Assembly: GCA_963732135.1 (NCBI GenBank)
Contig: CAVSYC010000004.1
Span: 34,484 to 98,483 of the forward strand
DNA: 64,000 nucleotides
Direction of reading: 5' to 3'
Source of the DNA: an uncultured Acidobacteriota bacterium
GTDB taxonomy: Bacteria; Acidobacteriota; Terriglobia; Acidiferrales; UBA7541
The position numbers and the translations under genes are program-made. Shown piece by piece: positions 10,086 through 43,949 of the stretch (its first letter is position 1; each line of letters begins with the position of its first letter). Under the pieces are notes generated by a model. That model ran no database searches and had not been told where the DNA came from. It saw only the letters and a list, made by a program, of their open reading frames with translations.

Positions 10086-10207
10086 CGCCTATGTTTTGGC
10101 CAAGTTTTTGGGGATTCCGAAGTACCGGACAGTCTTCCGGATAAATGTCGGTAAAACCGTGTGAACCGCTACGGCGGCTGGCGCGGAATTTGGGGGTTCT
10201 CGTGGTG

Positions 10208-13200: not shown

Positions 13201-14476
13201 GCAAGGAACGCTGACTTCAAGCACCAGCCTCGCCGGTGTGAAAATCTTCGGCTCCGGTTTCGTGAACAATAGCTCCGTCCAGCTCGATAGCGTGGATATC
13301 ACTTCGCAGGGCGGAAGTATCACCAATATCGCCGCCAACGGCCGCGAGATTGATTTTACGATTCCGGCATTTTTCCTGTCCGCCCCGCATCGCTACGCCG
13401 TGGATGTTGTCAGCAACGGCGTGAAGTCCAATGCGACTGACTTTTTCGTAATAAAGGCAGTGGACTTGACTAAGGTCTGCGCCACACCGCAGCCAAGCTC
13501 CGTGGCCATTGCCGATCAGTTGCCGGGCCAGGCTTTTTCACCCATCGCGGTGGTCAGTAACAGCGGTTGCAACAATATTTCTGTCATCGATATAAATCCG
13601 CAGAGCCCCACTTTCGGCTCCATCAAATCTTCGATTCCCACCGGCAGTGACCCGCAGGGAGTCGCGGTAAGCCCGCGATTCGGTGTGGCCGTGGTGGCAA
13701 ACAACACCGCTGGCACCGCTTCCGTTTTGAATTTGCTCACCAGCACACAGAAGGTACCAGACGTCACTGTCGGCACATCGCCCACCGGAGTTGCTATTGA
13801 CGAAGGAACTGGCACCGCCCTGATTGCTAACACGGGCAGCGGCACTGTTTCCGAACTTAATCTTGCTCTGCTGGTGCCAACAACTGCCAACCCCACGCCG
13901 CCAACGACGCTTAGTTCCATCTCGATCGCCATTGACACATCGCCTATCGCGGTCGCTATTGACCCGGATCGCGGCACCAACAACAACGGCTTGGCCGTGG
14001 TGACAGCATTGCAATTGATCAGCGGCTCGTCGCCAATTGGCGTTCTCGATGCCATCGATTTGGGCGGGCAATCACCGGCAAAGAGCACCACTGCTGCTGT
14101 GGGTTCGGTGACTTCGACACCCACTGGAGTCGTTTTCAATCCCAGCGTGTCGCCGACGCTTTTCTACGCCACCTCGAGTGGCGGCAACGTCGTCACGACT
14201 TTCAATCCGGATACCGGCGCCAGCACTTCCGTACACGTCGGAATCAATCCAACTTCTCTGGCGATCAACCCGCAAACTGGCGGCATCATGACCGTCAATT
14301 CCGCCAGCAAGACCATCTCGATCATTGACACACTTTCAAGTCCGTTTAAGACTCGCAGCTCCTTCGGACTTGGCGGTTCGCCGCAGTTCGGCGTCGCCAT
14401 CGACCAGTTCACCAATCTGGCTGTGCTTGCCGATCAGGCGAACAATCGCGTTTTGATTTTCCCTGTGCCGAACTGA
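10208..14476 (+). CDS. Large predicted lipoprotein: Ig-like/IPT domains plus two YVTN/YncE-like beta-propeller regions
   Basis: Signal MKDRNSFFRLWPSLSTIFALAIAG-C (lipobox), VAVSPSAATV...YTAP Ig-like repeats, IPT-like KIFGSGF, propeller blades such as PTGSDPQGVAVSP, VGTSPTGVAID, VGINPTSLAINP. Thr/Ser/Asn-rich. Confidence 0.8.
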   Translation: MKDRNSFFRLWPSLSTIFALAIAGCGGSSNTNVVTVAVSPSAATVIVSQSLTLTSLVSGATNLNVTWACTFTTTTVDSTGKATTATALPCTSDTGNIPANSTNTTVIYTAPNKVPDPTKFPLLQIIITATSVEDPKAKTTPATLTLDSGISVSLTPATATVPTGEQQIFNVNLTNDLQTQGVTFLITQGTPTNTIPFPSLTTCSPACGTITAGAANTSATYTAPSTVPTTAALTIVATSKADTTRFTIGTITIIQGGPITFNGVSPTIAPQGASLYNIYLDAPFISSSSSITLTGATSGNNININSGTGQMKVLFPIPTSSVTNPASTGVRIQLTAANLATADTYTVSVMDPAEPVTKGAGPFTITVVPVRPTSVASLPDSFPQNGTGNELNLAVDGGYFGNDGQLALTTFNGNALVQSSDLSSFSRQLNLTFPPSAISSSPGLYPLSVARTTPPLPAQNNPSVTNIAVFPDYSVTPPALVGSGTNAGTNPGAIDIDTRLGVLAVAETSSDQVQFFSIGSGSLTPVSGGLGTASVTKPSSLSINQANHTVAVVSFQDQVVTVFQIPDAAGNVPAGSGAPGVTYPLTISFSSLIPPDFTPTPLIYSVGVDSDTNNAIVAYSSTANPTTAKIGFLLDLNKDSMPCLPSLTSATPPCIHAQVTLNTGQFPQVAMIPHQHQALVTPGGQGFIQGVDVTQGSSAFTIANVTLSSGLVTVTLNIPSGQTLSLNPGNPGSVLIQNVPAGTTNGTNFNGIFTIQSVLNNNSFTYALSSTVNDSAIPTQSPDTAFAFFGAPNTTVAISQTVQGIAINPITRTAAIADANATGINGPQIDLLNSLDQSVSSITFHSGNGSTTGPQGCTVFTTTCANAPELLGTSSVAFQPYSNSLVSYNPQLNQISVSNPVTQARYAVVQLGSGSLQTLPVVPVTVAGAPQNLTVFGGVAVDPATNQAFVVDPIAGKIQIVNLGPTSATTLKPVEITELQVPTVAGALIGGISGAVMPQGTLTSSTSLAGVKIFGSGFVNNSSVQLDSVDITSQGGSITNIAANGREIDFTIPAFFLSAPHRYAVDVVSNGVKSNATDFFVIKAVDLTKVCATPQPSSVAIADQLPGQAFSPIAVVSNSGCNNISVIDINPQSPTFGSIKSSIPTGSDPQGVAVSPRFGVAVVANNTAGTASVLNLLTSTQKVPDVTVGTSPTGVAIDEGTGTALIANTGSGTVSELNLALLVPTTANPTPPTTLSSISIAIDTSPIAVAIDPDRGTNNNGLAVVTALQLISGSSPIGVLDAIDLGGQSPAKSTTAAVGSVTSTPTGVVFNPSVSPTLFYATSSGGNVVTTFNPDTGASTSVHVGINPTSLAINPQTGGIMTVNSASKTISIIDTLSSPFKTRSSFGLGGSPQFGVAIDQFTNLAVLADQANNRVLIFPVPN

Positions 14477-23336: not shown

Positions 23337-23470
23337 GAAGGCAAGATTTCAACCGCCGCTCTTTCCTTTGCTGTCTTTCTCTGTGAACTGCGGCTCCGCG
23401 TTATCCTTTCTCCGTCTTTTGATTGCGTGCTAAATTCAATACATTCTCGCCCGGATCGCACGAGGACCTC

Positions 23471-24514
23471 ATGCTTGCCAAACTAGCAGTCGGTATCGCA
23501 ACTGTTTCTTTCCTGACTTTCGCCCAATCCACCGCGCTCCTCGCCCAGACCACGCCTCGTGAATCCCTCCTCGTCCTCTCCAAACAAGATCACACCGTAG
23601 CCATCGTCGATCCCACCACGCTCAAAGTTCTCGCGCGCATTCCGGTGGGCAATGATCCCCACGAAGTCATCGCATCCTCCGACGGAAACACCGCCTACGT
23701 TTCAAACTACGGTGGCGGCGCTTACAACACACTTACCGCCGTCGATGTCGCCTTGCAGACTCTGCTCAATACCATCGATCTCGGCCCGCTTCGTGGCCCC
23801 CACGGTCTCGATTTCGTTGGCGGTAAAGTCTGGTTCACCGCCGAAGCCGCCAAAGCCATCGGCAGCTATGATCCGGCCTCAAGCAAAGTCGATTGGATTT
23901 TAGGCACCGGCCAAAATCGCACTCACATGATTTACGTTGCGCCGGATGTGAAGCGCATCGTCACCACCAATGTCAGTTCCGGCACCGTCAGCATCATCGA
24001 AAGTTCCGAAAACCGTTCGCCGAACGCAGCTGCAAACGCTGCGCCGTCCAGCCCGCCTCGCGAAGACTGGAATGAGAGCGTCATCAAGGTTGGCAACGGC
24101 TCTGAAGGATTCGACGTCTCTCCTGATCGCAAGGAAATTTGGGTAGCCAATGCGCAGGACGGCACAATCTCCATCATCGACGCCGCACAAAAGAGCGTTA
24201 CACAAACGCTCGCTGCCAATGTTCGCGGCGCCAATCGGCTCAAATTTACGCCCAACGGCAAATTGGTACTGGTGTCGGCTCTTCGCAGTCCGGACGTCGT
24301 GGTTTTCGATGCCGCCGTCCGCAAGGAAATCAAACGGGTCCCAGTGGGTCACGGCGCCGCCGGAATCCAGATGCAGCCAGATGGCTCTCGGGCATTCGTC
24401 GCCTGTACGCCCGACAACTACGTCGTCGCCATTGACTTAAAATCCCTGCAAGTCACCGCGCACATAGATGCCGGCGGCGGACCTGACGGCATGGCCTGGG
24501 CCGGCCGCCGCTAG
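23471..24514 (+). CDS. Exported YncE/YVTN-family beta-propeller protein
   Basis: Signal peptide; blades IPVGNDPHEV, GPHGL, TGQNRTHM, VGNGSEGFDVSPD, VGHGAAGI, AGGGPDGMAW. ATG 23471 after GAGGA. Confidence 0.8.
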   Translation: MLAKLAVGIATVSFLTFAQSTALLAQTTPRESLLVLSKQDHTVAIVDPTTLKVLARIPVGNDPHEVIASSDGNTAYVSNYGGGAYNTLTAVDVALQTLLNTIDLGPLRGPHGLDFVGGKVWFTAEAAKAIGSYDPASSKVDWILGTGQNRTHMIYVAPDVKRIVTTNVSSGTVSIIESSENRSPNAAANAAPSSPPREDWNESVIKVGNGSEGFDVSPDRKEIWVANAQDGTISIIDAAQKSVTQTLAANVRGANRLKFTPNGKLVLVSALRSPDVVVFDAAVRKEIKRVPVGHGAAGIQMQPDGSRAFVACTPDNYVVAIDLKSLQVTAHIDAGGGPDGMAWAGRR

Positions 24515-24589
24515 TCACAACACTCTTGTTGTCTGATTTTAAAAATGCGCACGGGTACTTCGTCGCGTATTTCATTCCGGGAGAAAACA

Positions 24590-25138
24590 ATGAGCACTAA
24601 ACCACACAGCGCAGCGCAATCCGCAAGTTCCGTTCCGCCCGACGATCCGCAGCGCAACCTCGTCGCCAGCCAGGCAGAGGATCGCAACCTGCCGCACATC
24701 GGACTGGTTGGCGATACCTACACCACACTTCTAACCGGCAAGGACACCGCTGACCGCTTTTGCCTGATCGACATGCACGTTCCGCCTGGAGGCGGACCGC
24801 CTCCCCACCGCCACGACTTCGAAGAATCGTTCGTTGTTCTCGAAGGCGAGATTGAGACCATCTTTCGTGGCGCAAAGTCCATCGTAACCGCGGGCAAGAC
24901 CATTCACATCCCCGCCAACGCCCCGCACCAGTTCCGAAACGCGAGCGAAAAACCGGCGCGCCTCCTCTGCATTTGCTCAACCGCAGGCCAGGAAGAGTTC
25001 TTCGCGCAAGTCGGCGCCCCGGTCGCCACCCGTACTACAGCTCCGCCCAAACTCGACGACAAAGCCCAGGCAGAATTCAGAGCCAAAGCCCAGGCGCTCG
25101 CCCCAAAATACAAAACCGAGTTCCTGCAACACGCCTAA
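24590..25138 (+). CDS. Cupin-domain protein
   Basis: PPGGGPPPHRHDFEESFVVLEGE and IPANAPHQF cupin metal motifs. Confidence 0.85.
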   Translation: MSTKPHSAAQSASSVPPDDPQRNLVASQAEDRNLPHIGLVGDTYTTLLTGKDTADRFCLIDMHVPPGGGPPPHRHDFEESFVVLEGEIETIFRGAKSIVTAGKTIHIPANAPHQFRNASEKPARLLCICSTAGQEEFFAQVGAPVATRTTAPPKLDDKAQAEFRAKAQALAPKYKTEFLQHA

Positions 25139-25308
25139 AATCCATTTCGCTGCGAGCGTCAAACCATCTACGGATGCTCGGTCGCTTCCTTCATGAATTG
25201 CGTTGCTGTGTCTAAAGCATACGTGGATAGGGGAGAAAAACACATCGCGACAATGTAATACGCGTGTGGCTGCACCGTATTCAAGGAATATTCCTACAAG
25301 AATTTCTC

Positions 25309-25800
25309 CTACGGCTTGGCCAGCGTGATCTGCTCCGCCACGCACTGCCACCGCCCATCGCGCAAAATCCAAGTATCAATGAACCGTTCATAGCGATGCG
25401 TCGGCGCTCCGTTGCTGCCTTTGGTCGTGATGTCATCCAGGCCGCTCGCGATCACCGTGTTTGTTGCTACCGCATGTGCCACCAGCACCTGCATCTTCAG
25501 ACTAATCACCCGTGGCGCCTCTTCCTTGTAACCGGTCACCATCGTCTCTTTATTTCCCAGACTCCCATCCGAATCCACAATCACAAAATCGTCAGAAATC
25601 ATTTTCGAAAGCTTTGCCCAGTCATTCGCCTGCTGAATCGCAAACCATTCCTGCTCCAGCTTGGTGACCGCGCGCTCAGCTTCCGCAAAGCCGGACGCTT
25701 TGCCCGCTTGCCCTGCACGCGCGTTACTGTTCCATGCGCCCACGCACATCAACAAAACCGCCGACCCTGCGGCAATCTTCCGCACAACTCCGTGATTCAT
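25309..25800 (-). CDS. Exported NTF2-like (DUF4440) protein
   Basis: Signal peptide; LEQEW...ISDDFVIVDSDG...RFIDTWILRDGRWQCVA NTF2-like pattern. Confidence 0.75.
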   Translation of the reverse strand: MNHGVVRKIAAGSAVLLMCVGAWNSNARAGQAGKASGFAEAERAVTKLEQEWFAIQQANDWAKLSKMISDDFVIVDSDGSLGNKETMVTGYKEEAPRVISLKMQVLVAHAVATNTVIASGLDDITTKGSNGAPTHRYERFIDTWILRDGRWQCVAEQITLAKP

Positions 25801-25941
25801 TTGCGCGTTCTCCTTACCATCCGCCAATAATGTCGAAGGGATAAAACTAAAGACACCTAACGATAGTCGTAAAGAAGCGAACGATGGAAGTTGTTTCTCG
25901 AATCCCGCTACGCAAGATTCACGGAGGGAACTGCAGCATCC

Positions 25942-28900
25942 TTACGGCTCTGGCTCTGAAGGAGTCGGCGCGGGTGACGGTGCGCCCGCACCACCTGCCC
26001 CGCCACGCCCGGCGAATCTGGTCAACGACGTTCTCACGCGGTCACTCATCCGCCGCGGCGTCACCACGATCAACAATTCCGTGTCAGTCAACGAGGTATT
26101 CCGTTGCCCAAACGCGTAGCCTACGCCCGGCAAATTCGCCAGCCCCGGAATCCCGCTCAGCGATTTTGTTTCTTCGTTGTCCAGTAGCCCCGCGACGATC
26201 GAAGGTTCGCCTTCTTTCAGCCTGACCGTCTGCGAAACCGTGCGGTTGGTGATAATCGGAATTCCGTTTACGTTGTTCCCGGCCAGCGCTCGAATCTCGA
26301 ATTCCAACTGCAGCGTCACCTCATTTTCTTCATGCACCGTCGGAGTAGCTTTTACCTTAATTCCCAGATCTATATATTCCGATCCCGGATAGGGAGTCTG
26401 CTGCGCTCCGCCGATTCCCGATGCGAAACTCGAAGGGTCCAGCAGCACAGTTACAAAATTGTTGTTCCCTGAGCTGGCCGTCAGCACCGCGTCGGGCAAG
26501 CCGCTTGATGTCAGCAACGCGGTGATTAACGCCAACGGCCCCGGTGGCGTGCTCAATTCGATTCGCGATGAAAATTGTCCCGAGCCCAGACCTGCGTAAA
26601 CGCCCAGCGTGCCCGCTCCGTTATTGGTCACCGCGATGTCGCCAATTCCATCGTTTGTGAAGTCCGCAATCGCCACGCCCGCTGGAGTTGCCGCCGTTGC
26701 CAGCGGCGAGCCGGCAGCCGCGGTAAACACGCCAGTCGTGTCGTTCAGCAGCACCGTCACTGTATTCTCCGATTGGTTTACAACCGCGAAATCATCAATG
26801 TTATCGGCATTCAAATCGCCCACTGCAAAGGCCACCGGATCGGGGCCCGTCGCCACCGGCGACCCGCTCAATTCCGCAAACGTTCCGTTGAATGTGCTGT
26901 CACCCGTTGCCTGAAAAATTCCGATGTTCTGTGTCGCAGCATTTAACACGGCAATTTCCGGCCTGCCCGATTGGTCAAACGTGCCGGACAGCACCGCAAT
27001 CGGCCCCTTTTCCGCGCTTGGCAGTGCAAATGGCGACTTTGGAAACGGAGTGAACCCACCCTGCCCGTCGCCCTGAAAAACCGAAATGGTGTTGTCTCCC
27101 TGATTGATCACTGCAAAGTCCAGCAACCCATCGCCGTTGAAGTCCGCAATCACCACGCCGCTGGGCTTAGCCCCCACCGCGAACGGCGAACCCGTCGCCT
27201 CCGTGAATGTGCCATCAAAATTCTCGCTGCCCAGCAGCACGCTCACCGTATTCGATCCGCTGTTCGCGATCACCAGGTCCGCGGGCTGCACCAGGTGCGT
27301 CGCGTCTGTCAGACGAAAAATCTTGGAAGCGATGGCCGAAGGCAGCAGCTCGTTAGTGCCCAGTTTGATCGGCGATCCCGCGGTCGCGGTAAAATTTCCA
27401 TTATCGTTGTTAAATAAAATTGAGATGGAACCGTCGTTTTGATTCGCCACCGCCAGGTCCAGCAGCGCATCGTTGTTGAAATCCTGCGCCACAACCGCAA
27501 CCGGATTATTCCCAACCGCAAAATCCGTTCGCGCGAATACCGTCGAGGAAACAGCGCTCCCAACAGACGTTCCGCCCAGGCTCGTGGACAACAGCGACAA
27601 CGTCACCGGAAATCGCTGCCCCACAAAAAATGTTGCCGCTTTTCCATCCTGCGCCCGCATCAGGATTTGCCGACCGCTCTTCACCAGCGATAACCCGTTG
27701 GAAAATGTTGCGGACGCGCTCGGCATGGTCAGCAAAAACGTGCTTCTTCCTCCACCCACCGGCAAAACGTCCGTAGGGCTCGCTGTAATGCCATGTGCAG
27801 TAAACACCTGCGTCACCAATGAAAGTAAGTTCGTGATGTCGGTGGCCTGCTCCAATTGCGCAACGTCTGACGTGCTGAGCGGGAACGCTTGTACATTCGC
27901 CGGCGGCGTTATGCCCAGCGTTCTCGCCGCGTTTCGGTCCACTTCCAGCAGCTCGATATCCAGCATCACGTCCCGGCGCGCCTGCTCCAATTCCTTGATC
28001 AACTGTCCGGCCAGCGCCACTTTGTCCGCGCTTTCCCGCACCGTCAGGCTATGGTTGGCGATGTCCGTGGTAATGCGCGTCGAGTTCGTGATTTCGCGGA
28101 TCACCCGGACCATCTCTGTTATATCTTCCGGCGAAACGGTATTGTCCAGCCGGAATGTCTGCTCCAGTTCCTCCGCATACTCTTTGCGCTTGGCAATCGT
28201 GTCCTCGGCCACGAACATCAGCGTTGCATTCACCGCCCGGTAAAATGTTTTTGATTCCGCGCCCAGCAATTGCATCGCGGTATAGAAATCCACGTCGTTT
28301 ACTCGCAGCCTGATATTCTTCGACGCCAGGTCCGGGTCAAACGCCACCGTGATTCCGTACATCCTCGCCACTTGTTCGTACGCGCTCTTCGAATCTCCCC
28401 GCACATTCACGGCTTTTTTGCCCGGCTGCGGTTTCAGCGCCGACGATCCTTTTATCGCGTAATCTTCTTTGTCTCCGCGCGGCAGGTACTCCTTCATCTG
28501 CTTCATCTGCGCCAGCCGCTCCGCTACGATGGTATTTCCCGGATCAATCTTCAGCGCTTCATACATCAAGTCCGTTGCGCTTACGACGAACCCGTCCAGC
28601 GCATCAGTTTCCGCCTGGTCCACTAGTTTTTGCACCACCTCCGCGCGCCTTGCTGCGGCCCTGCGCACAATCCCGGCGTCTCCCGGAGCGCGCTTCACCG
28701 CCTGCTGGTATTCCGCCAAGGCCTCATCCATCCTGCCCGCGGCAAGAAATTTGTCGCCGCGATCAGCCAACTGCTCCGCCTGCTTGATATCTTCTTTCGA
28801 ATCCTTGGCGACTTGCGGTTTATTGGCAGCTTGGCCCAACGTTGCCGTTCCCGCGAGCAAGCAGACGGCGGCCACGCATACCGCACGGCCCAGCTGCCAT

Positions 28901-28956
28901 ACCGGGCTAGCTGCGGTCGACTGACTCCGCCCCTGTCGTAGATCTGCAATTTTCAT
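25942..28956 (-). CDS. Secretin (type II/III secretion system D-like) with N-terminal TPR and an internal 7x FG-GAP propeller
   Basis: Signal peptide, TPR helices, STN/N-domain (GITVAFDPDL), N3 (IANHSLTVRES), secretin strands DVMLDIELLEV, ATFFVGQRFPV, YIDLGIKVKATPTV, RTVSQTVRLKEGE, PGLANLPGVGYAFG, TELLIVVTPR; FG-GAP DFNxDGxxD repeats at about 26430-27535. Confidence 0.88.
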   Translation of the reverse strand: MKIADLRQGRSQSTAASPVWQLGRAVCVAAVCLLAGTATLGQAANKPQVAKDSKEDIKQAEQLADRGDKFLAAGRMDEALAEYQQAVKRAPGDAGIVRRAAARRAEVVQKLVDQAETDALDGFVVSATDLMYEALKIDPGNTIVAERLAQMKQMKEYLPRGDKEDYAIKGSSALKPQPGKKAVNVRGDSKSAYEQVARMYGITVAFDPDLASKNIRLRVNDVDFYTAMQLLGAESKTFYRAVNATLMFVAEDTIAKRKEYAEELEQTFRLDNTVSPEDITEMVRVIREITNSTRITTDIANHSLTVRESADKVALAGQLIKELEQARRDVMLDIELLEVDRNAARTLGITPPANVQAFPLSTSDVAQLEQATDITNLLSLVTQVFTAHGITASPTDVLPVGGGRSTFLLTMPSASATFSNGLSLVKSGRQILMRAQDGKAATFFVGQRFPVTLSLLSTSLGGTSVGSAVSSTVFARTDFAVGNNPVAVVAQDFNNDALLDLAVANQNDGSISILFNNDNGNFTATAGSPIKLGTNELLPSAIASKIFRLTDATHLVQPADLVIANSGSNTVSVLLGSENFDGTFTEATGSPFAVGAKPSGVVIADFNGDGLLDFAVINQGDNTISVFQGDGQGGFTPFPKSPFALPSAEKGPIAVLSGTFDQSGRPEIAVLNAATQNIGIFQATGDSTFNGTFAELSGSPVATGPDPVAFAVGDLNADNIDDFAVVNQSENTVTVLLNDTTGVFTAAAGSPLATAATPAGVAIADFTNDGIGDIAVTNNGAGTLGVYAGLGSGQFSSRIELSTPPGPLALITALLTSSGLPDAVLTASSGNNNFVTVLLDPSSFASGIGGAQQTPYPGSEYIDLGIKVKATPTVHEENEVTLQLEFEIRALAGNNVNGIPIITNRTVSQTVRLKEGEPSIVAGLLDNEETKSLSGIPGLANLPGVGYAFGQRNTSLTDTELLIVVTPRRMSDRVRTSLTRFAGRGGAGGAGAPSPAPTPSEPEP

Positions 28957-28983
28957 AAAGCTCGTGTATTCTATCGCGAAGAA

Positions 28984-29004
28984 ATAGGACTAGATTAGTC
29001 CGAT
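28984..29004. promoter_or_regulatory. Imperfect palindrome, candidate operator in the divergent promoter
   Basis: ATAGGACTAG-A-TTAGTCCGAT (8/10 arm match; core GGACTA-gat-TAGTCC is perfect), abutting TTGACT. Confidence 0.4.
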
Positions 29005-29033
29005 TGACTTGCGAAGCCCCCAAGCGGTAAACT
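29004..29033 (+). promoter_or_regulatory. Sigma70-type promoter of the FTR1 operon
   Basis: TTGACT (29004-29009), 18-bp spacer, TAAACT (29028-29033). Confidence 0.55.
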
Positions 29034-29062
29034 TACAATTGTAGTTGCAACTCATTTACAAG
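29033..29062. promoter_or_regulatory. Candidate Fur-like operator
   Basis: AT-rich TTACAATTGTAGTTGCAACTCATTTACAAG containing palindromes TACAATTGTA and AGTTGCAACT; TGCAACT-C-ATTTACA matches 9 of 14 positions of the 7-1-7 Fur box TGATAAT-N-ATTATCA; lies at the predicted transcription start. Confidence 0.45.
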
Positions 29063-29114
29063 TAGACACCCGAACCTTAAGTCTCTACTACAACAACTTT
29101 CGACTGGATGTCTC

Positions 29115-30383
29115 GTGCTTTCTGCTTTCCTTATCTCGCTCCGTGAGGGCGTCGAAGCCGCCCTGGTTGTTGGCATCATACTAGTTTATCTTGCCCGCAC
29201 CGGGCGTTCGAATCTTACCCGCTTTGTCTGGGCCGGCGTCGCACTGGCTGGCGCTCTCAGCCTGGCCGTAGCCATTGCCCTCGAACGCTGGCAAATCAGC
29301 GAAGACGGCTTCGAAGGCCTGATGCTGCTGCTGGCCGCGGTCTTCGTCATTTCGATGATCCTTTGGATGAACCGCGTTGCGCGGCATCTGCGAAAAGATA
29401 TCGAGCAAAAAATTGAAAATTACGCGGTGCGCGCGGGTTCCGCCGCCGGATGGGGAATTTTTCTTTTCGTGTTTCTAATGGTGGTGCGCGAAGGCGCCGA
29501 GCTGGCGCTGATCTTGCGCGCCGTGCAGCTTTCCAGCGAAGGCATTCAGACCTGGATAGGCACGATTGCAGGCATCGCGGCCGCGATTGCCGTCGGACTA
29601 TTTTTCTTCAAAGGCACTTTGAAAATCCCGTTGCACCGTTTTTTTGCTGCGACGACGATTATTTTGTGGCTGGTTGCTGCCCAACTCGCGCTTACGGGTT
29701 TGCACGAGCTTAGCGAAGCGCAGTGGCTGCCTTCCGGCAAGCAGGAAATGGCGCTGATTGGGCCCATCGTTCGCAACGAAATTTTCTTCTTCGTATTTAT
29801 TTTTGGCGCGGCGGTGCTGTTGATTCTTCGCGAGTGGCTGACGGCCTCGCACGCCAAGCTCGAGGCTGCTGCCAACGATGCCGAGCGGCGCCTGCTTTCG
29901 GCACAGCAGCGCCGCCAGCGCAACTGGATGCTCGCCGCGGCTTCGGCTTGTCTCGCCGTCATTCTCGTTCTCACCGCCGATTTTATCTACGTCCGCGCCA
30001 ACTCCGCGCCGCCCTCCGCGCGCGCAATCGCGGCTTGCGGTTCTTCGCACGACGAACTCCGCGTGCCACTCAGCGAAGTGCAGGACGGCAACCTGCATCT
30101 TTTTAACGTTAAAACCGGCGATCAGTCTTTCCGCTTCCTGGTCATCAAGAAACCGCAAGGCTGGGGCGTAGCGCTCGATGCCTGCCGCATTTGCGGCGCG
30201 GAAGGCTATCGCCAGGACGGCCAAAATGTGATTTGCCGCCACTGCGGCTCCGCAATTTATGTCCCCACCATTGGCGAAGCCGGCGGCTGCAATCCCATAG
30301 GCGTACCCTTCCGCGTGGACGGCTCCGACATCGTGGTGAATGTCGCCGCCATCACCAAATCCTGGACGGAAGTGCCCAAATGA
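29115..30383 (+). CDS. FTR1-family iron permease fused to a C-terminal DUF2318 (Cys-rich, predicted Fe-S) domain
   Basis: Two REGxE motifs (REGVE, REGAE), TM helices, then LDACRICG...ICRHCG...GGCNP. GTG start. Confidence 0.88.
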   Translation: MLSAFLISLREGVEAALVVGIILVYLARTGRSNLTRFVWAGVALAGALSLAVAIALERWQISEDGFEGLMLLLAAVFVISMILWMNRVARHLRKDIEQKIENYAVRAGSAAGWGIFLFVFLMVVREGAELALILRAVQLSSEGIQTWIGTIAGIAAAIAVGLFFFKGTLKIPLHRFFAATTIILWLVAAQLALTGLHELSEAQWLPSGKQEMALIGPIVRNEIFFFVFIFGAAVLLILREWLTASHAKLEAAANDAERRLLSAQQRRQRNWMLAAASACLAVILVLTADFIYVRANSAPPSARAIAACGSSHDELRVPLSEVQDGNLHLFNVKTGDQSFRFLVIKKPQGWGVALDACRICGAEGYRQDGQNVICRHCGSAIYVPTIGEAGGCNPIGVPFRVDGSDIVVNVAAITKSWTEVPK

Positions 30384-30414
30384 AAGGGATGTCCACATTC
30401 CGTCAGAACAGCCC

Positions 30415-30468
30415 GTCATTCCGAGCGCAGCGACCGAGGGTTCCGACTTTGTCGGAAGGAATCTCTCT
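30415..30468 (+). repeat. REP-like element, family A, with an inserted hairpin
   Basis: GTCATTCCGAGCGCAGCGA-ccgaggg-TTCCGACtttGTCGGAA-GGAATCTCTC; the core matches 59481. Confidence 0.7.
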
Positions 30469-30482
30469 TCGATTCGTCGCTT

Positions 30483-30517
30483 TTCACGAGTCACTAGTCA
30501 CAAGTCACTAGTCACGA
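30483..30517. repeat. Heptamer tandem array (5 units)
   Basis: TTCACGA GTCACTA GTCACAA GTCACTA GTCACGA, ending 2 nt before ATG 30520. Confidence 0.7.
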
Positions 30518-30519
30518 AC

Positions 30520-31833
30520 ATGTTTCTCCGCCTCATCGCCGACAACTTCACACGCCGCCCGCGCCGCAAATTTCTCACCGCCGCGGCTCTGTCGCTAGGC
30601 ATGGCCGTAGCCACCGCCGCCCTCAGCGTCTCCCTCGACGTAGGCGACCGTCTCTCCGAAGAATTCAAATCCCTAGGCGCAAATCTGGTGGTCACTCCCG
30701 AAGCCGATTCGCTTCCCCTGGAAATCGGCGGCGTTGATTTCCGCCCGGCCAATTCCGGCGCCTATCTCCCCGAACCGGACCTCCCCAAAATCAAATCCGT
30801 CTTCTGGCACAACAACATCACCGCCTTCGCGCCCATCCTTGATTTACGGGTTCAAGCCCATCGGTATTCTTTGCCAGTTAGCACACCGATAGGGCCTGAG
30901 ACCAATGCCACACTGATTGGCACTTGGGCGAGCCACGCAGTTCACAATCCAGATGCGTCAAGCTTCATTACAGGAATCAAGAACGCGAATCCGTGGTGGC
31001 ATGTGGATGGCAAGTGGTTCGATGACAACGAGCGGGAATGCTTGATTGGCGCGGACTTTGCCAGAAGCCAAAAGCTGAAGACGAACGACACACTCTACAT
31101 ATACGCCGTAAGCAAGACGGTTCCCGTTATGGTTGAGCTGCGTATCGTTGGAATTCTAGACACTGGAGGCCCGGAGAATAATGCAATCGTCGCGCCGCTG
31201 ATGGTTGCTCAATGGCTCGCCGACAAGCCGGGCCAATACCGCAAACTCTACGTCTCCGCGTTGACTAAGCCTGAAGACGATTTTGCACGGCGCGACCCGC
31301 GAACCATGAAGCCAGACGAACTCGAACGCTGGTCCTGTTCACCGTACGTTTCTTCAATCGCGTATTCGATTAAACAGGTTCTGCCCGGTTCCGACGTCCG
31401 CGTAATCCGTCGCGTAGCCGATGGCGAAGGCAAAATTCTCACTCGCGTCCGTACGCTGCTCTGGCTGGTAACATTCGCATCTCTGCTGGCCGCCGCGCTA
31501 GCTGTAGGCGCATCCTCCGCCGCATCAGTCATCGAACGCCGCACCGAAATAGGCCTGATGAAAGCGCTAGGCGCAGCCTCCGGCACCGTCGGCTGGCTGC
31601 TTGCAGCCGAACAACTCCTCCTGGCATTCGTAGGCGGCTGCGCAGGCTACGCAGTGGGCTTGCTTCTAGCGCGTTTCCTCGGCACAAAAATTTTCGGTGT
31701 CCCGCCCGAACCCTCGCTGCTAGTCCTCGGCGTAATCCTCGTCCTCGCCGCCGCCGTAACCCTCCTCGGCAGCGCACTGCCGCTACGCCGCGCCGCCCAC
31801 TTTGATCCCGCGCCCATCCTCCGAGGCGAATGA
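30520..31833 (+). CDS. MacB/FtsX-type ABC permease (first of two)
   Basis: LGANLVVTP, periplasmic domain, YVSALTKPED, WSCSPY, ERRTEIGLMKALGA, C-terminal DPAPILRGE. Confidence 0.88.
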   Translation: MFLRLIADNFTRRPRRKFLTAAALSLGMAVATAALSVSLDVGDRLSEEFKSLGANLVVTPEADSLPLEIGGVDFRPANSGAYLPEPDLPKIKSVFWHNNITAFAPILDLRVQAHRYSLPVSTPIGPETNATLIGTWASHAVHNPDASSFITGIKNANPWWHVDGKWFDDNERECLIGADFARSQKLKTNDTLYIYAVSKTVPVMVELRIVGILDTGGPENNAIVAPLMVAQWLADKPGQYRKLYVSALTKPEDDFARRDPRTMKPDELERWSCSPYVSSIAYSIKQVLPGSDVRVIRRVADGEGKILTRVRTLLWLVTFASLLAAALAVGASSAASVIERRTEIGLMKALGAASGTVGWLLAAEQLLLAFVGGCAGYAVGLLLARFLGTKIFGVPPEPSLLVLGVILVLAAAVTLLGSALPLRRAAHFDPAPILRGE

Positions 31834-31865
31834 TGCGCATTGCTCATAGACCACGCGAAATGAAA

Positions 31866-31938
31866 ACCTGTCTAAAGGCCGCCCGCTACAACAGCAATCA
31901 AGCCCTCGCTTTTCGTAGCGGCCGACCTTCAGGTCGGT
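31866..31938. repeat. Divergent pair of GTAG-type REP elements (family B)
   Basis: Minus-strand TGTAGCGGGCGGCCTTTAGACAGGT (31866-31890) and plus-strand GTAGCGGCCGACCTTCAGGTCGGT (31915-31938). Confidence 0.7.
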
Positions 31939-31965
31939 GGTTTTTATTCTTCTCGGAGCGTTCCC

Positions 31966-33123
31966 ATGCCTGAGCGCCGCTCCGCTAACCGCACCATGTT
32001 CTGGCGCGTTCTCCGCCGCTCAGTCTTCGCCGACCGCGGCCGCCTTTTCGTCGTTCTTCTCGCACTGGGAGCTGGCGCCGCTATCACCGCCGCTCTCCTG
32101 AATCTTCAAGTCGATGCCAAGCGCCGCATCAACACGGAATTTAGCATTTTCGGGCCAAGCGCCCTCATTGTCCCAGCCGGTACCTCGGCGACCTTCGCAG
32201 AAACGAACTTCGATGAGTTGGTTAAGGGCGGACCGCTTTCGAATTCACGGGCGACTCTCCTCTTGATTAGTGAGGTGGCCACCCAGACCAGCCCGCAACG
32301 ATCGATGCGTGCGGTCGTAGCCGGAACCCGCCCACTCCAACGGATCGACGAGCCAGGCAGGATTATTGCGCCGTCAAGTCAATCTGAACCGTACGATAGC
32401 CGTCAACTCTGCTTCGCCGGCGGGCGTCTTGCTTCCCGGATGCAAATAAAGGTCGGTGACGAAGTCGTCCTCCGGAGTAATGGGCGCGAGGAACCTTGCA
32501 AGATCGCTAGCATCTGGCTTCACGGCGATTCCACAGACGACCAAATTATGCCCAGTCTCGGAATTGCTCAAAGGCTTGCGGGTCTCCCCGGGCGCATCAG
32601 CTTTATCGATCTCAGTCTACGAGGGAGTCCTGAAGAGCAAGGCTCCTACATTTCTAGTCTGCAGCATCGCTTTTCAGGATTGGAGGTACGTCCCCTTCGG
32701 GAATTCAATCAAGCACAAGTAAACATTTATAACCGTATCTCTGGAATTTTGACGGCCACTGTCGCGGTCGTGCTGCTTCTCACCGCCCTCTGTGTAATGG
32801 CCGCCATGACCAACGTCGCCATGGAACGCAAGAACGACGTCGGCTTAATGAAAGCCATCGGCGGCTCAGTTCGCCGCGTCCTGCGTCTTTTCCTCGCCGA
32901 GGCCGCGTTGCTCGGACTAGCAGGCGGATTGATCGGCGCAGCAATCGGCATCGCAGTCTCCATCGGCCTCGGCAAAGCCGTCTTCGGCGTAGCCGCGCAG
33001 CCTCGCCTCATCGTGTATCCTATTTCTGTGGCCCTCACGGTGGTTGTAGCGATTCTCGCGGCTTATCCGCTGCGCCGCCTAGTGCACATCCGTCCCGCAT
33101 CCGTCTTCCGAGGCGAAGAATGA
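31966..33123 (+). CDS. MacB/FtsX-type ABC permease (second of two)
   Basis: TM1 LLALGAGAAITAALLNL, ERKNDVGLMKAIGG, C-terminal [10 protein letters not shown]; overlaps the next ATG. Confidence 0.87.
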   Translation: MPERRSANRTMFWRVLRRSVFADRGRLFVVLLALGAGAAITAALLNLQVDAKRRINTEFSIFGPSALIVPAGTSATFAETNFDELVKGGPLSNSRATLLLISEVATQTSPQRSMRAVVAGTRPLQRIDEPGRIIAPSSQSEPYDSRQLCFAGGRLASRMQIKVGDEVVLRSNGREEPCKIASIWLHGDSTDDQIMPSLGIAQRLAGLPGRISFIDLSLRGSPEEQGSYISSLQHRFSGLEVRPLREFNQAQVNIYNRISGILTATVAVVLLLTALCVMAAMTNVAMERKNDVGLMKAIGGSVRRVLRLFLAEAALLGLAGGLIGAAIGIAVSIGLGKAVFGVAAQPRLIVYPISVALTVVVAILAAYPLRRLVHIRPASVFRGEE

Positions 33124-34370
33124 CCGCGCAAACACAAGTCGTGCCTAAGCTCGCCACGCAAGTCGTCATCGATGCGCTGGTCAAACAATACGGCGCGCTG
33201 CGCGCACTGAATGGCGTCTCCTTCGACATCGCACCCGGCGAATGGGTCGCGCTGATGGGTCCGTCGGGCTCCGGCAAGACCACGCTCATCAATATTCTCG
33301 GCGGCCTCGACACCCTCACCTCCGGCCGCGTCGTAGTGGACGGCGTCGATCTCGCAAAGCTCAACGAAAACGCCCTGGTACGTTACCGCGCAGAAAAAAT
33401 CGGCTTCGTCTTCCAGCAATTTCACCTCGTTCCGTATCTCAATGCAGTAGAAAACGTGATGCTGGCGCAATATTTCCATTCCGTCACTGACGAAAAACAA
33501 GCCGAGGAAGCGCTGAAGCATGTTGGCCTCGGCGAACGCCTTACCCATCTTCCATCGCAGCTCTCCGGCGGCGAACAGCAACGCGTAGCCATCGCCCGCG
33601 CCCTCATCAATCAGCCCAAATTAATTCTCGCCGACGAACCCACCGGCAATCTCGACGAAGCCAACGAACAAATCGTCATCAATCTTTTCCGCGATCTGCA
33701 CAAATCCGGCCACACCATCCTGATGGTCACGCACGATCCGGACATCGCGCGCCAGGCCGACCGCCGCATCGAGCTCGCGCACGGCCACTTGTCTTTTGAC
33801 ACAGCGCAGCACGGCCCCAATCATCCAATGGCTTGCCCGCTCGCCAATACCGCCGATTGCTGCACGCCAGTCACAGCCGACGACGATATCCGCGTGGATC
33901 ACCTGCTCGAACAAATCTGGATTTGCGGCGAAGAAGGCAAGCCCGCGCAGCCGGAACTGTTGCGCGTCGAAGGACCAGCCGGCCAGTTGCCAATTGTCGG
34001 CGCCGAACCGGCAACCCGCCTGCTCGCGCGCATGGCCGATTCGCGCCTAATCGAATTCAACGGAAACAAAAATGGAAACGCCACGAGCGTGCCAATCGAT
34101 TCAGCGAATGGCGCGGAAGTTCACCTGACCGAATCCGGCTCACGCCGCGCTCGCGACGTAGTCCGCCGCCACCGCCTCGCCGAACGCTTGTTCACGGACA
34201 CTTTCGCCATCGAAGATGCCGAAGCGCACGTGCAAGCCTGCCGCTTCGAACACATCATCACGCCCGAACTAGACCAGCGCATCTGCTCTTTCCTCGGCCA
34301 TCCCAAAACCTGTCCGCACGGGAATCCGATTCCACCGGGAGCATGTTGCGAGATAAACCCGAAAGACTGA
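33120..34370 (+). CDS. ABC ATPase fused to a C-terminal DtxR/IdeR-like metal-binding and dimerisation domain
   Basis: [36 protein letters not shown]; then RHRLAERLF...[10 protein letters not shown]...[13 protein letters not shown]. Confidence 0.88.
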
Positions 34371-34389
34371 TTACTGAAAACTTCTTCCC

Positions 34390-34782
34390 ATGCCCATTCC
34401 CATCGACCAGCGCCGCAAGCCCGCCAGCGTGAAAATTCACGTAAGCAGCGGCGCGGGTGTGGACATCGTCTGGGCCGACGGCCACGCCAGCCATTTTGAT
34501 TTTGCCTATCTGCGCGAAAATTGTCCCTGCGCCACCTGCAACGATGAACGCATCAAAAAGGAATCCCTCGGCGAAGCTTCCCCCGCCTTCGCTTCTTCTC
34601 CCGCGTTGCCCATGTTCAAGCCCAAGGCCCGCGCGGAATCCGCAACGCCAATAGGCCAGTACGCGATACAACTTTCTTTTTCCGATGGCCACTCCACTGG
34701 CATTTACTCCTACGACCATCTCCGTTCCATCTGTCCCTGCCAGGAATGCACCGCACAGCGCACGCAATCCATACGCGCCTAA
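34390..34782 (+). CDS. DUF971 (GBBH-like N-terminal) domain protein
   Basis: IVWADGH, YLRENCPCATC, GQYAIQLSFSDGHSTGIYSYDHL. Confidence 0.88.
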   Translation: MPIPIDQRRKPASVKIHVSSGAGVDIVWADGHASHFDFAYLRENCPCATCNDERIKKESLGEASPAFASSPALPMFKPKARAESATPIGQYAIQLSFSDGHSTGIYSYDHLRSICPCQECTAQRTQSIRA

Positions 34783-43641: not shown

Positions 43642-43855
43642 AGTACGTAGATAGCATTTTCCGGGCGAAGCGACAATCAGTGTGACTTTGGAGATTGAGT
43701 TTTGGTGTCGGGCACTTTGGTGGTCTGGATCATGAGTTGGGCGATGTAGGCGAGAAGAGCGCCTGGCGGAGATCGATCTTTTTGAGGGAGACGGCGGAGA
43801 AGAGTTGTGCGAGGACCTGATTGAATGACATTGGTTACGCGTGGACCGACAGCGT

Positions 43856-43906
43856 TGTCATGCACAAGGAAAAGCAGGCCCTTGTCGCTGCGCTCTCCGA
43901 ATGACA
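43856..43906 (-). repeat. Degenerate family A REP element
   Basis: Reverse complement TGTCATTCGGAGAGCGCAGCGACAAGGGCCTGCT... Confidence 0.5.
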
Positions 43907-43919
43907 AAGTTTACAGGAA

Positions 43920-43944
43920 GGGGCACGGCTTAACGCCGTGCCCC
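43920..43944. terminator. GC-rich hairpin (REP-like or terminator) after the Big_2 lipoprotein gene
   Basis: GGGGCACGGC-ttaac-GCCGTGCCCC perfect 10-bp stem, 5 nt past the stop. Confidence 0.55.
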
Positions 43945-43949
43945 CTGCT

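Follow-up and report, generated by a model that had tools for sequence, protein, structure and literature searches.

A secretin family of uncultured Acidobacteriota with a seven-bladed FG-GAP propeller at the tip of the GATE1 hairpin

Introduction

In all secretin structures known to us, the channel is closed by an iris of short GATE1 hairpins. GATE1 is the β4-β5 hairpin, kinked at the position equivalent to PulD G458 and GspD G453, which forms a barrier across the ~75 Å lumen and whose tip shifts about 40 Å toward the lip on opening (PMC6155069). Lineage-specific insertions that provide the secretin scaffold with a second constriction or support its gate have been described, as in the cap gate of Vibrio-type GspD and the T3SS-specific N3 β-insertion of InvG; these are, however, short hairpins or loops in the lip or in N3. 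In the case of PilQ, a seven-bladed Ca-binding propeller, that of PilY1, is found at the gate/outer cavity, where it has been proposed to serve as channel plug and surface adhesin (PMC11525922), yet PilY1 is a separate, single-copy protein delivered on the pilus tip.

Here, we describe a secretin gene in a 64-kb stretch of DNA from an uncultured Acidobacteriota bacterium (the window), in which a whole 40-kDa domain sits in GATE1, so that a propeller would be borne covalently on the gate hairpin of each subunit. This propeller is of the FG-GAP type, and no homology to the PilY1 propeller is implied. We found no published account in the literature of a secretin joined to an FG-GAP or other β-propeller domain, and a propeller-on-gate secretin is apparently undescribed.

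Domain organization of the protein

The gene and the regions of its product are as follows, with positions numbered from the start of the window.

25942-28956 (-): secretin coding sequence, 1004 aa in one unbroken reading frame, TPR-N0-N1-secretin with the propeller within GATE1 (open reading frame list, Pfam)
28828..28956 (-), aa 1-43: signal-peptide-like N-terminus with hydrophobic core AVCVAAVCLLAG, cleavage likely after GQA (read by eye, no predictor)
28501..28797 (-), aa 54-152: TPR-like helical domain (sub-threshold Pfam TPR matches; helices in the AF2 model)
28180..28416 (-), aa 181-259: N0-like domain (β-α-β-β-α-β pattern in the AF2 model)
27973..28170 (-), aa 263-328: N1/N3-type ring-building domain (Secretin_N match; alignment to the last N-domain of GspD and PilQ)
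27604..27972 (-), aa 329-451: secretin domain, first half, with β1, lip/AHL region, β3 and β4 carrying the FFVG446QRFPV hinge motif (spliced alignment to solved secretins)
27526..27603 (-): GATE1 N-arm TLSLLSTSLGG (aa 452-462) and Ser/Thr/Gly tether (aa 463-477) (regional conservation)
26443..27525 (-), aa 478-838: seven-bladed FG-GAP (integrin-type) propeller (Pfam, blade alignment, AF2, Foldseek)
26332..26442 (-): C-side tether (aa 839-853) and GATE1 return arm QTPYPGSEYIDLG865IKVKATP (aa 854-875) (spliced alignment)
26047..26331 (-), aa 876-970: secretin domain, second half, with GATE2 strands and the last outer-barrel strand with its IPGLANLPGVGYAF motif (Pfam Secretin profile positions 51-166; aligned to GspD, PilQ and DR_0774)
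25942..26046 (-), aa 971-1004 and stop codon: C-terminal tail, Gly/Pro-rich, poorly conserved (0.52)

The signal-peptide-like region has low pLDDT and is weakly conserved, and the TPR region that follows it matches the N-terminus of the NCBIfam Amuc_1098 family model, which describes TPR-secretins. The assignment of the two ring-building domains rests on weaker signals, the family profile aligning over the N0-like and N1 domains to P. aeruginosa PilQ residues 319-477 with only 5.8 bits and the Secretin_N match, at 25.8 bits, falling slightly below its cutoff of 28.2; α/β folds are predicted by AF2, and PF03958 is among the precomputed domains of many homologs. The Pfam Secretin match (PF00263) is strong (E 9.5e-28, 97.3 bits against a cutoff of 27.5), and is limited to profile positions 51-166, corresponding to aa 855-968. 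The thresholds of the more specific models are not met, either for the GspD equivalog TIGR02517 (89.4 bits against 351.35) or for PilQ, TIGR02515 (63.3 bits against 284.35), and for CpaC there is no NCBIfam match, with RcpA (8odn) only a mid-ranking match in the PDB. In JGI, the name 'Flp pilus assembly secretin CpaC' was assigned automatically.

The likeness to GspD-type secretins (V. cholerae 5wq8/5wq9, E. coli 5wq7, PulD) lies in the FxVGxxxP hinge motif, the G-I-K-x-K of the return arm, the GATE2 strands and the C-terminal vP.L..iP.lG, but this protein has two N-domains instead of N0-N3, an N-terminal TPR and no S-domain, its GATE1 tip bears a 361-aa propeller, and no gsp genes are nearby. 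The N0-N1-secretin core layout is shared with PilQ (P. aeruginosa 6ve2, D. radiodurans DR_0774 8co1) and the Amuc_1098 TPR-secretins; unlike these, the protein lacks AMIN domains and the locus a pilMNOP operon, and the gate insertion has no counterpart there. The first-pass annotation had called the gene an orphan with no T2SS or pilus genes adjacent, and this can be extended to the whole window, in which T2SS, T4P and Tad genes were sought and none found; nor are there pilus genes in the conserved flanks. The 1004-aa protein is a genuine secretin under purifying selection; for its oligomerization or its formation of an outer-membrane channel there is no multimer model or experiment.

Position of the insertion in GATE1

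The same annotation had placed about 370 residues between ATFFVGQRFPV (aa 441-451) and YIDLGIKVKATPTV (aa 861-874), strands taken to flank the gate hairpin. The distance between these motifs is in fact 409 residues (aa 452-860); the figure given suits the propeller itself, about 361 aa at 26443-27525 and thus within the proposed 26430-27535, and what remains of the 409-residue span forms two tethers.

The position of the insert was assessed by deleting aa 463-848 in silico and re-aligning the spliced protein to solved secretins and to Pfam. The spliced protein aligns without a break over the junction to GspD (6i1y, 5wq7, 9k8v, 5wln), to RcpA (8odn) and to the D. radiodurans PilQ-type secretin DR_0774 (8co1), the last being its best full-span match in the PDB, and the insert falls at the GATE1 tip. 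Splicing also lifts the Pfam Secretin score from 97.3 to 111.5 bits and widens the matched part of the profile to positions 18-166, with positions 18-50 regained in the first half of the secretin domain. G446 aligns with Gly453 of V. cholerae GspD, the residue mutated in 5wq9 (G453A), G865 falls on the conserved glycine of the return arm, and insert-less orthologs have a plain hairpin at the exact insertion position. The contiguous alignment, the equivalence of G446 and this plain hairpin support the proposal that the insert lies in the gate hairpin and place the propeller at the tip of GATE1, the physical barrier.

Contiguity was obtained only by splicing, a full-length family profile failing to bridge the insert when run against the PDB. 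An initial phmmer alignment that matched blade 7 to GspD β4 was spurious, as FFVGQRFPV fits far better once the insert is removed.

Few parts of the protein are as conserved as the hinge glycines and the gate arms. G446 and G865, the latter in the return arm, are invariant in a 40-sequence alignment, and the GATE1 N-arm is the most conserved segment of all (9 of 11 columns invariant); conservation of the propeller (0.82) is on a par with that of the barrel (0.83). The length of the connections is conserved as well: across the family the N-side one measures 27-38 residues and the C-side one 19-28, as compared with 36 residues in total over the same span in the insert-less P0294. The propeller tethers reach only about 4-14 residues past the ancestral hairpin tip.

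The propeller

Pfam recognizes FG-GAP_3 (E 2.7e-30, six stretches) and FG-GAP (E 1.2e-9) in the insert, and together with the blade alignment and the AF2 model this confirms the seven-bladed FG-GAP propeller reported at first reading, whose seven quoted repeats are all there and can be aligned blade by blade (aa 478-530, 531-590, 591-643, 644-699, 700-750, 751-799 and 800-846). In the AF2 model these form seven four-stranded sheets, with pLDDT about 90 or higher over most of the propeller and an N-terminal strand (aa 476-480) positioned to complete blade 7. Loops of the D-x-[DN]-x-D-x-x-x-D type occur in blades 1, 3, 5 and 6 (aa 492-500, 605-613, 714-722 and 765-773), and their aspartates are invariant or near-invariant in the family alignment; by motif the propeller would be of the Ca-binding type, metal binding itself being inferred in the absence of binding data.

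The Foldseek matches include ITFG2, integrin alpha4 and the PVL lectin (E down to 4e-12, target-normalized TM 0.66-0.68), and also the AAL2 lectin. When the whole model was used as query, the top 50 matches were to propellers only, so that the barrel was not independently mapped, and in the AF2 monomer the barrel is weak (pTM 0.44), the tethers have pLDDT below 50 and nothing can be said on orientation. Some members of the family carry further modules nested in different propeller loops, namely He_PIG, three copies of Big_2, or ~300 aa of extra FG-GAP repeats. He_PIG, Big_2 and FG-GAP modules are typical of surface or extracellular proteins.

Distribution and origin of the family

The architecture is a conserved one and not a one-off. 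It is found in 121 species-level Acidobacteriota MAGs or genomes, is the same in all of the 120 homologs listed, and recurs unbroken in well over a hundred metagenome-derived protein clusters. We can thus scarcely entertain the idea of an artefact or a decaying gene, be it a chimeric assembly, a pseudogene or a non-pore remnant: nothing positive speaks for it, as it rests only on the absence of nearby partner genes and of transcript data, and it is effectively refuted by independent assembly in so many genomes and metagenome clusters and by the strong conservation of both secretin halves, the hinge residues and the propeller.

At 50% identity the relatives fall into at least 29 insert-bearing and 25 insert-less clusters. 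In a neighbour-joining tree built on the core only, the insert-bearing proteins form a single clade, whose sister is the insert-less positional ortholog P0294; a second insert-less protein, P0268, is nested within it. On this tree the propeller insertion apparently arose once and P0268 appears to have lost it secondarily; Ig-like modules were later nested in the insert. The insert-bearing lineage is one of soil Acidobacteriota that carry the labels Ca. Acidoferrum or Acidoferrales. With the N-terminal 462 aa as query, hardly anything but fragments of this family was recovered, which was uninformative on origin, a question answered by the exhaustive search of clusters at 50% identity. In the broader TPR-secretin family there is at least one link to prepilin-type genes, two of which follow the gene of a cohesin-bearing relative.

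Gating and the sidedness of the propeller

A ~40-kDa propeller, ~45-50 Å wide, would nearly fill the ~75 Å lumen alone, so that 12-15 of them cannot meet on the channel axis as closed GATE1 tips do. The earlier doubt that propellers could be fitted inside a 12-15-mer channel thus holds by simple size arithmetic, from which we also infer that the family cannot adopt the canonical closed GATE1 state.

The explanation that we favour, inferred rather than shown and held with a little less than even confidence, is that the propellers face outward. The GATE1 hairpins would be held extended, in an open-like state as in needle-bound InvG, along the inner wall toward the outer-membrane lip, and the propellers would come out of the outer mouth to form a crown, which would cap the channel instead of the hairpin iris. 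Such a crown may act as a Ca-dependent ligand-binding or adhesive module at the cell surface; the inserts may pass out through the channel prior to folding. The partner machinery is not encoded nearby. The outward option is favoured because of the nested Ig-like domains and the short tethers. Ig-like modules nested round the propeller imply space around it, and that a propeller can occupy a secretin's outer cavity has a precedent in the PilY1 cork of PilQ (PMC11525922). If outward display is right, an analogy of mechanism can be drawn with type V secretion (autotransporters, intimin/invasin), where a passenger is threaded as a loop or hairpin via its own β-barrel and Ig-like modules lie outside, albeit without kinship in sequence or fold and with a barrel that here would be multimeric. 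Against such a crown, the transfer of 12-15 hydrophilic 40-kDa domains across the outer membrane is a serious difficulty for biogenesis, hairpins that never kink would have less need of invariant hinge glycines, and no oligomer model or experiment is at hand. Nor is there a clade-specific motif or change in the lip/AHL region to house it, the FGGGxSTFLxTxP motif being common to insert-less relatives. The sidedness of the propellers thus rests only on geometry taken from other secretins and on the usual habitat of FG-GAP and Ig-like modules.

The propellers could instead face the periplasm, an arrangement that we regard as unlikely while still taking it seriously. The GATE1 arms would then point down or be unzipped, and the propellers would lie in or below the N1/N0/TPR vestibule as a platform on which a partner or cargo in the periplasm is docked or recognized, be it a pseudopilus tip, a substrate or part of the adjacent FTR1 system described below. 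No membrane would have to be crossed, as the propeller would fold where Sec delivers the protein; with only two ring-building domains (N0 and N1) the vestibule would be short, and spans of 32 and 22 residues could, by arithmetic, cover roughly 70-100 Å if fully extended. The C-terminus is periplasmic in known secretins, and it is there that related, cohesin-bearing secretins have an extra domain. A ~75 Å vestibule, however, takes about one propeller per layer, so that most copies would lie below the N-rings, beyond the reach of the tethers if the conserved gate arms remain paired; moreover, modules such as the nested Big_2 and He_PIG are more usual in surface proteins, and GATE1 in known structures opens up toward the lip and not down (PMC6155069).

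The steric conflict would also be relieved by a non-canonical assembly, in which the protein is a minority subunit in a ring mixed with an insert-less secretin, or forms a ring of another copy number or diameter, for instance with a single, PilY1-like cork. One propeller-containing protein does fit the PilQ outer cavity (PMC11525922), and insert-less TPR-secretins exist in the same broad family. The insert-less relatives examined nevertheless fill the same genomic slot in other genomes and are therefore orthologs rather than co-resident paralogs, and no second secretin was found in the window or the flanks inspected, which leaves one elsewhere possible given that whole genomes were not scanned. 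We consider such an assembly improbable, and return to the outward-facing crown as the preferred explanation.

Genomic neighbourhood and a possible link to iron uptake

Upstream of the secretin gene lies a divergently transcribed cluster, separated from it by a shared intergenic region with the following features.

29115..34782 (+): FTR1 permease fused to an FtrD-like domain, two FtsX/MacB-type permeases, ABC ATPase fused to Fe_dep_repr_C, and a GBBH-like_N protein (Pfam)
28957..29114 (no strand): shared divergent intergenic region with a TAGAAT (-10-like) box on the secretin side (conserved in 68 aligned loci; promoter scan)
28987-29001: inverted repeat GGACTAATCTAGTCC in the intergenic region (conserved in 68 aligned loci)
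29004-29033: FTR1-facing promoter-like pair TTGACT-18-TAAACT (promoter scan)
29043-29063: Fur-family-like palindrome AGTTGCAACTCATTTACAAGT (conserved in 68 aligned loci)

A homologous system is known from C. jejuni (1649-1656), where an FTR1 permease, P19, a membrane protein, two FtsX-type permeases and an ATPase lie behind a Fur box, and for which an outer-membrane component has not been identified (PMC6083913). By comparison, the window has the FTR1 protein (fused to the FtrD-like domain), two FtsX permeases, the ATPase and the Fur-like palindrome, and its cluster has no P19 homolog. The conserved intergenic motif occurs once in the window against 0.01 expected. The FTR1/FtsX/ABC iron-uptake cluster is probably Fur-regulated.

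The secretin might accordingly be suspected to be the outer-membrane part of the adjacent FTR1/FtrD-FtsX-ABC system, its propeller capturing an iron source and handing it over, a suggestion that we hold to be doubtful. In 72 of 80 loci FTR1 lies upstream in divergent orientation, with a median gap of 111 bp, the arrangement persists next to insert-less orthologs of ~30-35% identity, the palindrome and the further inverted repeat are conserved in the shared intergenic region, an outer-membrane component has not been identified in C. jejuni, and the cluster of the window lacks a P19 homolog. However, the palindrome is located so as to control the FTR1 promoter and not that of the secretin, and in P0268, on a 4-kb contig, the secretin adjoins the GBBH-like_N gene with no FTR1 cluster between. 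The gene order may also reflect a frozen core-genome block rather than shared function: the stretch that runs from bamA by way of truB and the secretin to the FTR1 cluster is syntenic as a whole, and since the adjacency to truB and the whole block from bamA to FTR1 are equally conserved, synteny cannot prove the link, which remains only a lead. We know of no secretin that imports metals. In its fullest form, in which a surface crown of gate-borne propellers captures the iron source and passes it into the channel as the missing outer-membrane component of an FTR1-type system, the proposal is again a long shot; if true, a secretin would serve import, its hairpin gate replaced by a passenger domain that it exports itself.

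Implications

Placing a 40-kDa domain on each hairpin tip excludes closure by an iris, and the family must therefore have another means of gating, capping or using its channel. Natural controls are provided by the insert-less orthologs of the same slot, a single apparent reversion and the variants that carry additional nested modules, making the family a tractable test of what a secretin gate can tolerate, and the possible tie to an iron-uptake system without a known outer-membrane component adds a second testable hypothesis. The hosts are uncultured Acidobacteriota, recovered for the most part from soil metagenomes, and next to nothing is known of their envelope biology; the family could show whether a secretin can display its own passenger domains on the cell surface.

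A propeller within an uninterrupted secretin frame

The secretin gene (25942-28956, minus strand) is a single uninterrupted 1004-residue reading frame, in which Pfam recognises FG-GAP_3 (E 2.7e-30, six stretches), FG-GAP (E 1.2e-9) and Secretin (E 9.5e-28). As the Secretin match is limited to profile positions 51-166, at residues 855-968, the first third of the domain must lie upstream of the repeats. The two motifs that a first-pass annotation of this DNA had quoted as strands flanking the gate hairpin were located at residues 441-451 and 861-874, and its seven repeats indeed align as seven blades with a common pattern. The AlphaFold2 model has seven four-stranded sheets, with pLDDT >90 across most of residues 480-750, and positions a strand (476-480) directly before blade 1 to close blade 7, so that both propeller ends exit side by side, as an insert at a hairpin tip needs. 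A Foldseek search of the PDB returned seven-bladed integrin-type propellers, namely ITFG2 in KICSTOR, integrin alpha4 and the fungal GlcNAc lectins PVL and AAL2 (E-values down to 4e-12, target-normalised TM-scores up to 0.66-0.68); most of the best-fitting compact matches (target-normalised TM ~0.5) are carbohydrate-binding lectins. Calcium-type D-x-N-x-D-x-x-x-D loops occur in blades 1, 3, 5 and 6, with aspartates that are strictly or almost strictly conserved across 40 family members.

Domain score and gate motifs identify the protein as a secretin, yet it scores far below the cutoffs of the curated GspD, PilQ, MshL and SctC models, and the operon contexts of those proteins are missing. Its predicted N0-N1 core is similar to that of PilQ, and its TPR N-terminus to that of the Amuc_1098 family. 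We found no published account of a secretin whose gate carries an inserted domain; the Vibrio cap gate and the InvG N3 beta-insertion, also lineage-specific additions, are by contrast short loops outside GATE1.

The insertion point in the gate

GATE1, the beta4-beta5 hairpin, is the physical barrier across the ~75 Å secretin lumen; it kinks at InvG Asn386 (equivalent to PulD Gly458 and GspD Gly453) and at a conserved return-arm glycine, and its tip shifts ~40 Å upward to the lip during opening (PMC6155069). When residues 463-848 were spliced out in silico before alignment to solved secretins, our protein aligned unbroken over the junction to GspD (four species), RcpA and a Deinococcus PilQ-type secretin, while the Pfam Secretin score rose from 97.3 to 111.5 bits and coverage widened to profile positions 18-166. 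G446 (in FFVGQRFPV) aligns with V. cholerae GspD residue 453, which is alanine in PDB entry 5wq9, an entry that is thus the G453A gate mutant. Judged from sequence, the propeller sits at the GATE1 tip, an assignment that rests on the splice alignments, the match of G446 to GspD 453 and the published definition of GATE1, and that upholds the gate-hairpin placement first proposed. Both hinge glycines, G446 and G865, are invariant in the family alignment, and the GATE1 N-arm, TLSLLSTSLGG, is the best-conserved segment of the entire protein (9/11 columns invariant). Separately, the protein and its sub-lineage relative P0239 lack, at residues ~385-395 (window ~27770-27800), a ~25-residue lip/AHL segment found in most other family members, insert-less ones included.

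Distribution and origin of the insert

The propeller-bearing secretin is a family rather than a one-off. The architecture is shared by all 120 homologs listed (58-94% identity), soil metagenomes being the main source of sequence matches, and, with each species represented by one genome, relatives turned up in 121 genomes, every one a MAG and nearly all labelled Acidobacteriota, Ca. Acidoferrum or Acidoferrales. The gene also occurs in several MAGs of the SMAG series that bear the labels of unrelated phyla (Eisenbacteria, Dormiibacterota, Methylomirabilota, Saccharimonadales, Verrucomicrobiia and others; loci L006, L007, L012, L016, L019, L020, L025, L043, L052, L054, L057 and L063), most with the same truB/FTR1 arrangement; these bins look mislabelled or contaminated, rather than evidence of wide phyletic spread.

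Cluster representatives at 50% identity were searched exhaustively with the N-domains and first half of the secretin domain as query, and the 54 proteins in which both secretin halves could be located were retained. Extra residues at the GATE1 tip number 355-670 in 29 of these and about 0-18 in the remaining 25, which have kept the layout of TPR, N-domains and secretin domain. Neighbour-joining on the core, with the insert left out, groups the insert-bearing proteins in a single clade whose sister is the insert-less P0294, with a hairpin, GDRFPIILASFTSIFFTPDMIKAILGGTFVPPIPAVQYEDLG, whose arms are recognisably homologous to RFPVTLSLLSTSL and TPYPGSEYIDLG of our protein. The insert-less P0268 falls inside the insert-bearing clade, a placement for which secondary loss is the simplest reading. 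Its gene (locus L081, 2060-3925) adjoins the GBBH-like_N gene without an intervening FTR1-FtsX-ABC cluster, making co-loss of propeller and iron cluster possible on the basis of a single short contig (4 kb). The propeller itself accommodates nested modules, placed in different loops in different variants: some have He_PIG Ig domains between blades 3 and 4, others three Big_2 domains within blades 1-3 or ~300 residues of additional FG-GAP repeats.

Genomic neighbourhood

The locus had been described as lacking adjacent T2SS or pilus genes, and this extends to the full 64-kb window, in which no T2SS, T4P or Tad genes were found. One flank is a housekeeping block (a LolCDE-like set, Clp ATPase, bamA, a 1443-residue protein, skp and rimP-nusA-infB-rbfA-truB); the other, divergently transcribed, encodes an FTR1/FtrD-like fusion, two FtsX/MacB-type permeases, an ABC ATPase fusion and a GBBH-like_N protein.

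10145-14476, plus strand: 1443-residue ORF that directly follows bamA and precedes skp
23423-25827: YncE-like beta-propeller, cupin and DUF4440/SnoaL-like genes, between truB and the secretin gene
29115-30383, plus strand: FTR1 iron permease fused to an FtrD-like (DUF2318) membrane iron-sulfur domain, 422 residues
33120-34370, plus strand: ABC-transporter ATPase fused to Fe_dep_repr_C

The 1443-residue ORF matches nothing in Pfam at E <= 1e-5 and by position might be a TamB/AsmA-like envelope protein. Further away, at 41683-45896 (minus strand), a PQQ-dependent dehydrogenase propeller (652 residues) adjoins a 648-residue protein with six Big_2 Ig-like domains, a probable pair of envelope or surface genes unrelated to the secretin.

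FTR1 lies directly upstream of and divergent from the secretin gene in 72 of 80 loci (median gap 111 bp), and the insert-less orthologs P0294 and P0332/P0386 occupy exactly the same genomic slot. In most species truB adjoins the secretin gene within about 20-300 bp, and at least two of the genes at 23423-25827 (the cupin was unscored) occur in just 6-9 of the 80 loci. As the whole bamA-to-FTR1 block is syntenic and the truB adjacency equally deep, gene order alone does not prove a functional tie, and synteny was ruled out as proof of a secretin-FTR1 link. Fe_dep_repr_C is the C-terminal domain through which DtxR/IdeR-type iron-dependent repressors bind metal and dimerise; its fusion to the ABC ATPase, kept beside the secretin in insert-less lineages too, suggests a metal-sensing ATPase.

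The secretin/FTR1 intergenic region is strongly conserved. An FTR1-facing promoter-like pair, TTGACT-18-TAAACT (within 29004-29063; conserved form TTGAC-N17-GTAnACT), is followed by a 21-bp palindrome, AGTTGCAAAT-N-ATTTACAACT, that abuts the ribosome-binding site and whose 7-1-7 core resembles Fur-family boxes. Between the two divergent promoters lie a secretin-side TAGAAT box and the inverted repeat GGACTAATCTAGTCC (GGAC-N7-GTCC, 28987-29001). The pair, palindrome and repeat are each conserved in ~68 species. In the C. jejuni 1649-1656 system the outer-membrane component is unidentified, according to its authors (PMC6083913); unlike that system, the window's FTR1 cluster has no P19/FetP-type periplasmic iron-binding protein, no P19 homolog being found in it.

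More distant TPR-secretins are situated elsewhere in their genomes. P0318 and P0328, insert-less members of a more distant clade, have a C-terminal cohesin domain, and downstream of the P0328 gene (locus L086, 10001-13169) come two prepilin-type (N_methyl) genes, while a sugar transferase and an STN-domain protein are encoded upstream of it.

A possible arrangement of the propellers

Seven-bladed propellers are about 45-50 Å across, and the 361-residue propeller has a calculated mass of ~40 kDa and volume of ~48,000 cubic Å. By this arithmetic one propeller nearly fills the 75 Å lumen and fifteen, perfectly packed, would need a column >160 Å tall, bearing out by inference the early remark that they are hard to fit in the channel. 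From this size we infer that the canonical closed state, with all GATE1 tips meeting on the axis, is sterically impossible. Between hinge glycine and propeller, the non-propeller peptide measures 27-38 residues N-terminally and 19-28 C-terminally (members 40-56% identical), against 36 in total over the corresponding span of P0294, so that, if the ancestral arms were kept, the propeller hangs just ~4-14 residues past the old tip.

An extended, open-like conformation has been described for InvG (PMC6155069). Were the hairpins to adopt such a posture along the inner wall up to the lip, the clash would be avoided, and the propellers could form a crown at or past the outer mouth, where both capping of the channel and ligand binding would be possible. 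This topology and function are inferred by analogy; the nested Ig-like modules and the prevalence of lectins among the compact Foldseek matches fit them, as does PilY1, a propeller-containing protein proposed as a cork of the PilQ outer cavity (PMC11525922). Against such a crown, 12-15 hydrophilic domains would have to cross the outer membrane, which poses a real difficulty for biogenesis, the invariant hinge glycines hint that the hairpins still kink, and there are no structural data on the oligomer. The main rival reading keeps the propellers on the periplasmic side, and mixed or non-canonical rings cannot be excluded, whole genomes being unscanned. A propeller-on-gate design should surprise the secretion-system specialist, and the family comes with its own natural control proteins.
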